The position numbers and the translations under genes were made by a program. Shown here one piece after another: positions 10,281 through 49,218 of a stretch of DNA of 64,000 nt. Position 1 is the first letter of the stretch; every line of letters starts with the position of its first letter. The notes beneath the pieces were generated by a model. It was given only the letters and a program-made list of their open reading frames with translations. It was not told the DNA's origin and made no database searches. The stretch covers positions 1,600,001 through 1,664,000 of the forward strand of contig CAVOJR010000001.1 of assembly GCA_963696295.1 (NCBI GenBank), read 5' to 3'. The DNA is from an uncultured Chlamydiae bacterium. Lineage in GTDB: Bacteria > Chlamydiota > Chlamydiia > Chlamydiales > JAJFMB01.

Positions 10281-10380
10281 CATAGCGTTAATGACTCGGT
10301 CGAAACGCCGCAAAGCATCTGGATCCTTTGGCAGGTCATCGGCAAGTCCATATCGAGCCATTCCTCTTTGCCTGTCAGCT
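10281..10380 (-). repeat. Displaced copy of the last 100 bp of the xdh-like gene (12169-12268)
   Basis: 96/100 identical by direct comparison. All 4 differences are synonymous third-position changes. Confidence 0.97.
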
Positions 10381-10508
10381 TTGTCCAAAACTATCATTTC
10401 ACGCGGATTGGGATAGCTAGCTACCCCCATAGTTATTTTTTTGTGAAAAATATTTACGAAAAATAATTTCTTTTACTGTAACATGATTTTTTTCAAATGG
10501 GAGTTGAC

Positions 10509-12161
10509 ATGAGCAGGATCAGGGCCATAATTTCAGCTTTATTAGCCTTGACTACACCTTTGATATCCCAGGGAGTCCCAAATACGTGGACGCCTCCGCA
10601 AATAGTAAATGATTCTGGAGATACCATTTACCCTACAGATCCCTCATCTACTGTTAAACTCGGTGTAGATGGCACGGGGAATGGAATCGCTCTTTGGTTG
10701 AATGTATCTACTTCAACAACCCAGGTAGTTCAAGCAAAAAGGTACAATTTCAATACCAACACCTGGTATGATGAGCAGACTTTGACCCCTATAGCGCAAA
10801 GTTACGATCTGCAACAGATTGCAGTGAACTCTAGCGGACAAGCTATTGCCGCATGGAGAAATTCAAGTACCAGCACCGGCACTATTGAGGCCTGTTACTT
10901 TACTGGCACAACGTGGCTGCCCTTACAAAGTTTTTCAAGTACGGGTAATTATAATAATCCGCAAGTTTCTATTGACGCGCAGGGTAATGCCATCGTGATC
11001 TTCAGTGAAGATAACGGCTCAATATTAGCTTATAACTTTCCCTCGAATTCACCACAAAATCCGGTAAATATATCGACTAATCTGCCAAATTCTACGACAA
11101 ATGTTTACCCAAGGCTTCAGATTGGTATGTATGGGATGAACAACGCCATTGCTATGACTGTTGTGCGGGATATTACAGGAGGCTTTTCTGTTCAAGCTTA
11201 CCTTTTAAATGGAACCTGGAGCGCGCTAACAGGATTCCCTCCTGCAACAATTTATGGGATTACATCTCTAGGTCTTGCTGTGAATTCCTCTGGCGCCGCA
11301 GCGGCGACCTGGTTTGTGAATAATGGAACTGACAACCCCGTTACTGCCGCTTACTTAAAACCAAACACCACTTCATTTAATTACACTGGAATTGGGGGAT
11401 CAGTCAATGTGCTTTATTTAAATGAGATAAGACCTCCCATTGCGATTGCGCCAAATGGTTTAGCAGTGGCTTTGACCGCTGCCACCCTGCAGCAACCGCA
11501 ATACACCATTTATAACCCAGTGACTATGGAGTGGAGCCCTATTGCCAATTTTTCCTTTAGCTCCAATATTCTTTTACCTCTTGCAGTGGGTTTAGACAAT
11601 CTTGGGAACGGGTTTGGTTTTTTTCTCGCATCCACAGATTATTCCATGAGCCCATCGATGGCTACGTACTCTATTCAGGCCTCCCGTTTTATGAACAATG
11701 CTTTTTCAAACACCTTAACCCAAATTTCTTCCCTCTCCTCTCCAACCACGAGTCTCATTTCTGGCTCATTTGATGTAGCCGCGAATGGCAATGCGCTTGG
11801 CGCCTGGAAAATTCTTCTCGATGATGTGCTTCAGATCCAAGCCGCTGCATATACAGCCCCTCCTCCGCCTCCTCCGATTCCTGCGGCACCGAAGCCTCCA
11901 AGGAACCTTAACGCGGTGCAAAAGAGCGATCGATACCCAACGCAAACAGTATATCTCAATGTGCTTACTTGGGATAAAAGTCTATCAAAGAATATAGTTT
12001 CGTATCGCATCTATAAAGAGGGTATCCGAATTGCCGATGTGCCAAAAGAGACTTTGACTTTCACTGATCACAATATCGATCCCGCAGTGATTGTTACCTA
12101 CGAAGTTAAAGCGGTGAATGCACAAAAAAAGGAAAGCAAATCGGCTACTGCAATCATTTAA
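10509..12161 (+). CDS. Secreted beta-rich (propeller-like) protein with a Pro linker and a C-terminal fibronectin-III-like domain
   Basis: Signal peptide, repeated V(D/N)xxGxAIAxW units, a PPPPPPIP linker, and PRNL...LTW...YRIY...FTD...YEVKAV. Confidence 0.75.
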   Translation: MSRIRAIISALLALTTPLISQGVPNTWTPPQIVNDSGDTIYPTDPSSTVKLGVDGTGNGIALWLNVSTSTTQVVQAKRYNFNTNTWYDEQTLTPIAQSYDLQQIAVNSSGQAIAAWRNSSTSTGTIEACYFTGTTWLPLQSFSSTGNYNNPQVSIDAQGNAIVIFSEDNGSILAYNFPSNSPQNPVNISTNLPNSTTNVYPRLQIGMYGMNNAIAMTVVRDITGGFSVQAYLLNGTWSALTGFPPATIYGITSLGLAVNSSGAAAATWFVNNGTDNPVTAAYLKPNTTSFNYTGIGGSVNVLYLNEIRPPIAIAPNGLAVALTAATLQQPQYTIYNPVTMEWSPIANFSFSSNILLPLAVGLDNLGNGFGFFLASTDYSMSPSMATYSIQASRFMNNAFSNTLTQISSLSSPTTSLISGSFDVAANGNALGAWKILLDDVLQIQAAAYTAPPPPPPIPAAPKPPRNLNAVQKSDRYPTQTVYLNVLTWDKSLSKNIVSYRIYKEGIRIADVPKETLTFTDHNIDPAVIVTYEVKAVNAQKKESKSATAII

Positions 12162-12167
12162 ATATCT

Positions 12168-48332: not shown

Positions 48333-48668
48333 TTATTCAGTCAAAATTGATATTAACTGTTTTTTGATAGCAGGTATTTCTTGCTTAACAACTTTCCATG
48401 TTAGAACTAGATCAACAGAGAAATATTTGTGTATTAAAATATCTCTCATTCCGGCGATTTGTTTCCAAGGAATTTCAGGATGTTTGGAGCAAAATGAGGG
48501 TGGCAAATTTTTGACTGCCTCCCCAATAATTTCAAGACGACGGACAATAGCATCCTGTAAGGGTAAATTTTTGACAAATTCGTTTTGCTTAACATCCCTT
48601 GTGTAATCTTCCAAAAGAAGAATAGAATCCATGATATGTTGCAGAAAAACTTTTGGATCCTTTTTCAC
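48333..48668 (-). CDS. HEPN (DUF86/HepT-like) ribonuclease toxin
   Basis: RRLEIIGEA, IPWKQIAGMRDILIHKY (RxxxxH). Its GTG start overlaps the antitoxin TGA. Confidence 0.92.
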   Translation of the reverse strand: MKKDPKVFLQHIMDSILLLEDYTRDVKQNEFVKNLPLQDAIVRRLEIIGEAVKNLPPSFCSKHPEIPWKQIAGMRDILIHKYFSVDLVLTWKVVKQEIPAIKKQLISILTE

Positions 48669-48967
48669 AGAATCACCACTTGCTCTGCAAGGATTTGCTC
48701 TCGAATTCTCCAATAAATGGAATTGTATGTGACCAAATCAACCTTACAGTTTAAGGTTTCCTCTAAATCAAATTTTAAATCCACTAAATCGAAAAGAGAC
48801 TTGTTTTTTGTTTTATATTCGATAAGAAAATCGACATCGCTTTTTGCTTTAGCTTCACCACGTGCATAGGAACCAAATATCGCAGCCCTTTTGACAGCGT
48901 GTTTTTTTAATACAGGCAATACCTTTTTTTTGATCCCCTCAAGGGTGTGATTTCTATTTTTTATCAT
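48665..48967 (-). CDS. Minimal nucleotidyltransferase (MntA-like) antitoxin
   Basis: FGSYARGEAKAKSDVD (GSx10DxD) and KVDLV. Confidence 0.92.
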   Translation of the reverse strand: MIKNRNHTLEGIKKKVLPVLKKHAVKRAAIFGSYARGEAKAKSDVDFLIEYKTKNKSLFDLVDLKFDLEETLNCKVDLVTYNSIYWRIREQILAEQVVIL

Positions 48968-49143
48968 AGGCTAAGGAAACGTCAAAATAATTCATTAATA
49001 CTTTACTTTAACCCTTTTTCCCTTTTTTTGAAATAGATGTTTAATTAAGTATTTATTTCTCAACAGTGGTTCGACAGGCTCTTCAGATTCAGATCTTCTA
49101 TAGGCATCACAAGGCGGGTCGCGCTTGGCAGCGTCTTCAAAGT

Positions 49144-49218
49144 CTGGAGGAGGAGGGCAAATGGAAGGCGAACCCCAGATTGTTGAAGCTGATGTTTTGT
49201 GACATGGCGATCTTCAAT
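49144..49218 (+). repeat. Displaced copy of the 3' region of the 46600 gene (48226-48300)
   Basis: 68/75 identical. Six of the 7 differences are at third codon positions and 5 are synonymous. Confidence 0.95.

Follow-up and report, generated by a model that had tools for sequence, protein, structure and literature searches.

Foreign DNA can be added to a bacterial chromosome by homology-facilitated illegitimate recombination, in which DNA taken up from a donor is fixed by one homologous, RecA-dependent anchor and one non-homologous join at microhomology, and no integrase takes part. Phages and integrative elements that enter the 3' ends of protein genes restore these ends with an incoming copy and displace the old ones to the far side of the insert. 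A third class, insertion with long target duplication, is said to go back to Nobusato et al. in 2000. Furuta, Abe and Kobayashi (2010; PMC2853133) describe, for this class, small inserts without a mobility gene between long, variable direct repeats of more than 30 nt; the repeats often span a start or a stop codon, the species are mostly competent, restriction-modification genes are involved and the insertion is ascribed to a break at the target. Kirchberger et al. (2017; PMC5361080) propose that a homologous anchor together with an illegitimate insertion moves old 3' ends downstream in arrays of the type VI secretion system (T6SS) and of Rhs. Here we compare these systems with stranded copies of gene ends, termed ghosts in the following, that lie beyond unrelated cargo genes in the genome of an uncultured Chlamydiae bacterium (assembly GCA_963696295.1). 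They were first noticed in a stretch of 64,000 nt (the window; positions 1,600,001 to 1,664,000 of contig CAVOJR010000001.1), which is part of a 3.30-Mb contig (C1, whose own coordinates are used for loci elsewhere) in a two-contig genome (G000) of 47% GC, 97% completeness and 1.5% contamination.

Gene-end copies beyond cargo genes

The ghost pattern is real and general in this genome. From our own gene calls we took 2104 confident genes and compared the final 300 nt of each with 8 kb on either side. At a score of 18, same-strand matches lay downstream of 92 genes and upstream of 25, and inverted matches were found for five; this inverted control gave 0 to 5 genes, depending on the threshold. 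With paralogues removed, a copy 450 nt or more downstream remained in 32 rows, and only four non-paralogous matches lay more than 450 nt upstream. Seven rows were excluded (two tandem arrays, one of which entered the control set, and one each of an operon duplicate, a paralogue-cluster repeat, a mainly intergenic repeat, a repeat view of an event and a nested second ghost). The final curated set consists of 25 3'-end ghosts beyond cargo, on the outward side of their genes, and bears out the genome-wide recurrence that the original prediction had drawn from a few loci. Ghosts of 5' ends beyond cargo belong to about seven genes.

The 3'-end ghosts are 27-590 nt long (24 of the 25 exceed 30 nt) and lie 0.6-7.7 kb from their genes, which include those for BirA, NifU, GcvT, two UvrA paralogues, cystathionine gamma-lyase, glycine C-acetyltransferase and an ABC permease. 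Their decay proceeds mainly by deletion: 15 of the 25 aligned rows contain indels, with 35 deletions versus five insertions, and lost stops and nonsense changes are likewise present. A separate class, which serves as a control below, is formed by those 33 of the 2104 genes whose final codons recur in short head-to-tail copies without cargo; some of these tandem copies span both ends of convergent genes.

The three pairs first noticed in the window belong to xdh and to gene 46600 (Table 1). The copies of the xdh 3' end, placed by the original prediction at 10281-10380 and 12169-12268 around a gene with FN3 similarity, are present and extend to 106 nt. Within the 100 nt first considered they differ at four positions, all synonymous in the xdh frame, and two non-synonymous differences follow at the edge. 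Both ends of gene 46600 are duplicated at the positions predicted. Its 3' region (48226-48300) differs from the ghost by five synonymous and two non-synonymous substitutions, and the earlier count of nine synonymous substitutions among 11 in the two 3' pairs (4/4 and 5/7) was exact. In the 5' pair the live counterpart is 46586-46668, and the single substitution falls in the ribosome-binding site.

Table 1. Genes, cargo and ghosts at the xdh and 46600 loci (window positions)
Feature	Position	Strand	Remark
Resident membrane-protein gene, ancestral convergent neighbour of xdh	2560..3417	+	Orthologue overlaps xdh 3' end in G232
Oldest xdh 3'-end ghost, stop codon kept in xdh frame	3403..3422	-	18/20 nt match
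Probable older cargo between the two xdh ghosts	3623..9828		Placed by the gene order of G232
Younger xdh 3'-end ghost	10281..10386	-	106 nt, 94% versus 12169-12274
Cargo: 554-aa secreted-looking orphan with FN3-like tail	10497..12161	+	Ends 6 nt from xdh stop
Live fused xanthine dehydrogenase gene (xdh)	12168..16157	-	Pfam MoCoBD/FAD/Fer2; duplicated end 12169-12274
Ghost of ribosome-binding site and 5' end of gene 46600	45679..45736	+	4-nt and 21-nt deletions
Cargo: frameshifted gene, ~265-aa hypothetical family	45763..46535	-	Real pseudogene or assembly indel
Live 569-aa gene 46600, homologues across the order; both ends duplicated	46600..48309	+	
Cargo: MntA/HepT (type VII toxin-antitoxin-like) pair, GC 0.35	48333..48967	-	Ends 23 nt from 46600 stop
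Ghost of gene 46600 3' end, stop lost	49144..49218	+	75 nt, 91%

The xdh cargo is a stack from at least two events, with ghosts at 3403 and 10281. The relic at 3403-3422 had been proposed as one of two shorter relics of the same kind and holds up as such: controls reach at most 16/20 nt, and about 0.003 matches of this quality are expected by chance. It was retained because it is part of the end of gene 2560, inside the last codons. In a related genome (G232) xdh directly overlaps the orthologue of gene 2560, followed by an esterase gene, which is the gene order of an empty site; in the window 8.7 kb separate the two genes. In the light of this overlap in G232, the relic marks the ancestral xdh junction. 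The older block contains a pentapeptide-repeat protein, an epimerase, a TPR protein and orphans, with a GC content of 0.40-0.43. The other proposed relic (20021-20059) has its sole good match 34 nt upstream (30/39 nt) and belongs to a tandem duplication of 34-nt period (19986-20059) beside the end of an IS3-family element, with no cargo. A candidate third xdh relic, which lies within a gene at 6898 and matches at 17/20 nt, was regarded as a chance match. The fused xdh gene is rare in the order, with matches in four of 299 other genomes, two of them strong.

Stacking is likewise seen at C1 2703399, which has two ghosts. In the BirA-NifU region (C1 691693-695645) the order is birA, a first cargo, a nifU ghost joined to a birA ghost, a second cargo and nifU; both ghosts keep their stop codon, each adjoining the stop of a cargo open reading frame (ORF). 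This is the product expected from joining two alternative alleles of one interval in series. A second ancestral adjacency concerns C1 3209406, where the cargo is toxin-antitoxin-like and a genome of the same family (G001) has both flanking genes directly convergent. The flanking gene ends overlap, so that only a duplicating insertion could spare both genes.

In the comparison with empty-site alleles suggested by the original prediction, the expected gene order was found at two of the five junctions tried (xdh/2560 in G232 and C1 3208861/3210565 in G001), and a nucleotide-level match at none of the five. No empty site was found for birA/nifU at two distant NifU loci, which lack birA-nifU adjacency (in one of them birA lies ~2.8 kb downstream of nifU), and the gene after a LolE-like ghost had no usable orthologue. 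Among metagenome contigs, the exact xdh-end pattern gave no stretches and the 46600 alignment no loci.

In most cases the cargo has a lower GC content than the host gene; it comprises toxin-antitoxin-like pairs, a serine hydrolase, a GH8, LRR and TPR proteins and many orphans. The 554-aa orphan of the window has no Pfam match, and its weak homologues bear FN3/PKD domains; the MntA and HepT matches are both just below the NCBIfam cut-offs, and the Pfam Polbeta/HepT-like matches above theirs. As claimed earlier, profile matches revealed no integrase or transposase in the window cargo of the three pairs. Among 33 cargo proteins from 20 loci no integrase was found either, and the sole mobility genes were an IS3 ORF pair in one 7.7-kb block; restriction-modification genes had no match in the scanned cargo. 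An origin of the cargo as recent copies from elsewhere in the genome was rejected, the paralogues of the cargo checked being only 25-58% identical. The shared junction motif that had been suggested as a check did not emerge: across the 25 rows we found no common motif at junctions or cargo ends and no terminal inverted repeats such as mark a transposon or non-autonomous cassette, the longest exact inverted match between cargo ends being 5-10 nt. Three small families of dispersed repeats (25-50 nt long, with 6-15 copies per family; for example C1 2865803-2865882, 2698377-2698410 and 213030-213065) touch single cargo junctions and are not common among them.

The genome under study looks enriched for gene-end ghosts, if only in a soft sense. 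A comparison sample of 2.4 Mb from six genomes of the order, run through the raw pipeline, gave 21 raw rows in 1525 genes versus 31 in 2247 for G000, which is the same raw rate. The loci of 12 of the 21 rows were inspected: ten are palindromic elements, tandem arrays, repeat proteins or paralogues, and two represent one clean event in G243 (L135:3191-4412), a 189-nt, 89% duplication over both convergent gene ends with one cargo gene between; the nine uninspected rows fall short of the stop codon by more than 60 nt. Copies reaching to within 60 nt of the stop number 22/2104 versus 1/1525 (nominal p=7e-5), in a hand-curated comparison of two pipelines in which kin are not independent. Cargo-free tandem copies are frequent too in the sample of same-family G002 (seven raw rows in 246 genes), with 0-1 in the five other samples. 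Palindromic dispersed elements of ~170-200 nt were observed in G135, G002 and G155 (L121, L050 and L048).

Synonymous differences between genes and ghosts

Across the curated ghosts, 53 differences from the live gene are synonymous and 41 non-synonymous (53/94, 56%; dN/dS 0.22-0.30). The cargo-free tandem copies of the 33 control genes have 38:74 (38/112, 34%; dN/dS 0.58-0.78), and intact paralogues reach 61% synonymous. Ghosts differ from the tandem control by Fisher's test (p=0.002) and by a bootstrap over events (P=0.006). They also exceed (p=0.003) a ceiling of 0.417, calculated for a neutral ghost facing a fully constrained gene with the mutation spectrum of the tandem control. The excess first seen in the window hence extends to the whole genome, and it survives removal of the two window pairs on which it was discovered (44:39, 44/83; p=0.009 versus the control and 0.024 versus the ceiling). 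In a split made post hoc, the excess lies with the one-sided events (45:31) and is missing from events that duplicate both flanking ends (8:10).

A copy made from the same chromosome could reach at most ~42% synonymous differences. We interpret the excess over the tandem control as an indication that, averaged over events, part of the divergence between gene and ghost took place when each was still coding sequence. The synonymous differences lean towards G/C in the gene and A/T in the ghost by 29:14 (p=0.03); tandem copies lean the opposite way (12:23).

A proposed additive joining of alleles and its alternatives

We lean towards reading the ghosts as scars of an additive joining of alleles by host enzymes, with a donor from a related lineage. 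DNA of such a lineage would bear the same gene end with a different neighbour. One homologous crossover inside the common gene end may then be followed by a non-homologous join of the far donor end behind the crossover, within the recipient gene; circularisation of the fragment and its integration by a single crossover would be equivalent. The product would be an intact gene, the cargo and a displaced gene end that decays mainly by deletion, as observed, and repeated events at one site would stack cargo in order. Insertions that duplicate a start or a stop codon would persist because they leave the gene intact; if two genes overlap, as relatives show for two loci, only duplication keeps both. 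The minority of events with identical copies, or with both flanking ends duplicated, probably reflects same-strain DNA or true target duplication. The original proposal that donor DNA from a relative replaced the gene end draws support from the synonymous excess, but events that are 99-100% identical or of the both-end type need no donor. Its overall interpretation holds for the recurrence, the missing recombinase and the synonymous bias, and not for those cases or for the relic at 20021-20059.

In favour of such joining, the genome encodes ComEC and, at C1 810006-811609, a Ku gene and, after it, a LigD ligase domain that stands alone. Of 201 genomes of the order, 33 have Ku. Loss of mismatch repair as the cause was rejected, MutS and MutL being present.

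Several observations weigh against additive joining. Homology-facilitated illegitimate recombination in the laboratory usually deletes recipient DNA instead of duplicating it. Neither DprA nor the LigD polymerase domain has a match in the genome. Neither a donor nor a genome of the same genus could be found, and empty sites were found neither for 46600/NDH-2 (0/11 NDH-2 loci and none of the 46600-family loci inspected, in distant relatives) nor for 855010/APT (0/11, again in distant relatives). The sole clean event found in other genomes, that of G243, is of the both-end type, and three events in G000 are 99-100% identical. With kappa set to 4 and the window pairs removed, the synonymous excess reaches only p=0.06. 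Finally, a symmetric model of two lineages expects no lean such as the 29:14 towards G/C in the gene.

An unlikely account is true long target duplication, in which a staggered chromosomal break undergoes fill-in and end joining traps foreign DNA. The copies would initially be identical, and the synonymous excess would arise later, through exchange between alleles or because the live copy gains synonymous changes faster; the G/C lean suggests such change on the live copy. The account fits the class treated in PMC2853133, several events duplicate both flanking genes, and copies of 136 nt and 333 nt at 100% and of 106 nt with one mismatch are as expected. Ku and the LigD ligase point the same way, whereas the missing LigD polymerase domain speaks against it. 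Its main difficulty is that tandem copies, with the same geometry and a similar second-position divergence (0.036-0.039 versus 0.029), have no synonymous excess. The BirA-NifU order, moreover, would take three insertions and two chance abutments.

It is improbable that tandem duplication came first and that unrelated cargo later landed in the dispensable middle. The 33 genes with cargo-free tandem copies, some over both convergent ends, would supply the substrate, but an equal synonymous share is then predicted in both classes, and 0.56 versus 0.34 was observed. This explanation is weakened for one-sided events and stands for both-end events.

Decayed integrative elements, which restored the target end and then lost their integrase or used one in trans, are quite improbable. 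Elements of the gene-restoring type do give a synonymous-biased copy that ends at the stop, and five full tyrosine recombinase matches on the chromosome could provide the enzyme. Against this stand ~25 different targets, ghost lengths of 27-590 nt, junctions without a common motif and scanned cargo without an integrase, the IS3 copy in the 7.7-kb block being the only mobile gene content. An assembly chimera of co-occurring strains is very improbable: four soil-metagenome runs gave scattered contigs of ~150-230 nt on 36000-55900 that bridged no junction, but the ghosts are decayed, mainly by deletion, which is unlike live alleles, and the assembly has two contigs and little contamination.

Other features of the window were recorded in passing. 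The IS3-family element at 18706-19925 has five identical chromosomal copies, and a 97-nt fragment of it lies at 23076-23167. A low-GC ORF of 768 aa (20641-22947) weakly matches Pfam AvrB/AvrC at the C-terminal end, and a 3133-aa protein with a DUF3638 domain (36152-45553) has two paralogous regions elsewhere on the chromosome. An imperfect, T-rich tandem array occupies 57148-57343.

Comparison with described systems

Much of a bacterial accessory genome shows no sign of mobile elements, and its route of arrival is an open question. Tentatively, any gene end may be a possible integration site at which host recombination and end joining add a relative's neighbour gene serially, without replacing what was there, so that core genes come to bear ordered, integron-like stacks of cargo without a mobile element. 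This might be a main route of accessory growth in large-genome chlamydiae, datable from its ghosts. If the donor-allele model is true, a bacterium that probably depends on a host exchanges DNA across diverged lineages. The model predicts hybrid gene ends, ghosts that resemble empty-site alleles and additive products of transformation, and it is testable owing to numerous scars and a neutral control in the same genome. We found no published genome-wide set of synonymous-biased gene-end ghosts in chlamydiae; supplements or subscription papers may hold one.

The pattern resembles homology-facilitated illegitimate recombination in its proposed anchor and illegitimate join, and is unlike it in that recipient DNA is here duplicated, where it is usually lost. 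It is likewise unlike phages and integrative elements in protein-gene 3' ends, with no integrase, no common attachment core and many targets.

The ghosts are a variant of insertion with long target duplication and of the 3'-end displacement in T6SS/Rhs arrays. The mechanism is accordingly less new than the original prediction held; integrase-free insertion with duplications over start or stop codons is in print (PMC2853133). As described there, the inserts are below 20 kb, the direct repeats exceed 30 nt (in all rows but one) and a mobility gene is missing, apart from the IS3 pair of one block. Unlike the restriction-modification cargo of that account, the cargo here is mixed and ~25 sites occur in one genome. 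The copies moreover differ. Pooled over events, the synonymous fraction of 0.56 exceeds the ceiling (0.417), and such an excess is not attainable by plain copying of the target; three single events are compatible with such copying.

With the T6SS/Rhs arrays (PMC5361080) our loci share orphan 3' ends stacked downstream (two ghosts each at xdh and C1 2703399). Unlike them, they have no variable toxin tip accompanied by an immunity gene: the tips are nearly identical in protein, which amounts to an equivalent replacement at housekeeping genes. T6SS/Rhs arrays swap the tip of a gene for a new toxin, whereas here, as at the genes for BirA, NifU, GcvT, UvrA and Xdh, the gain is the neighbour gene.

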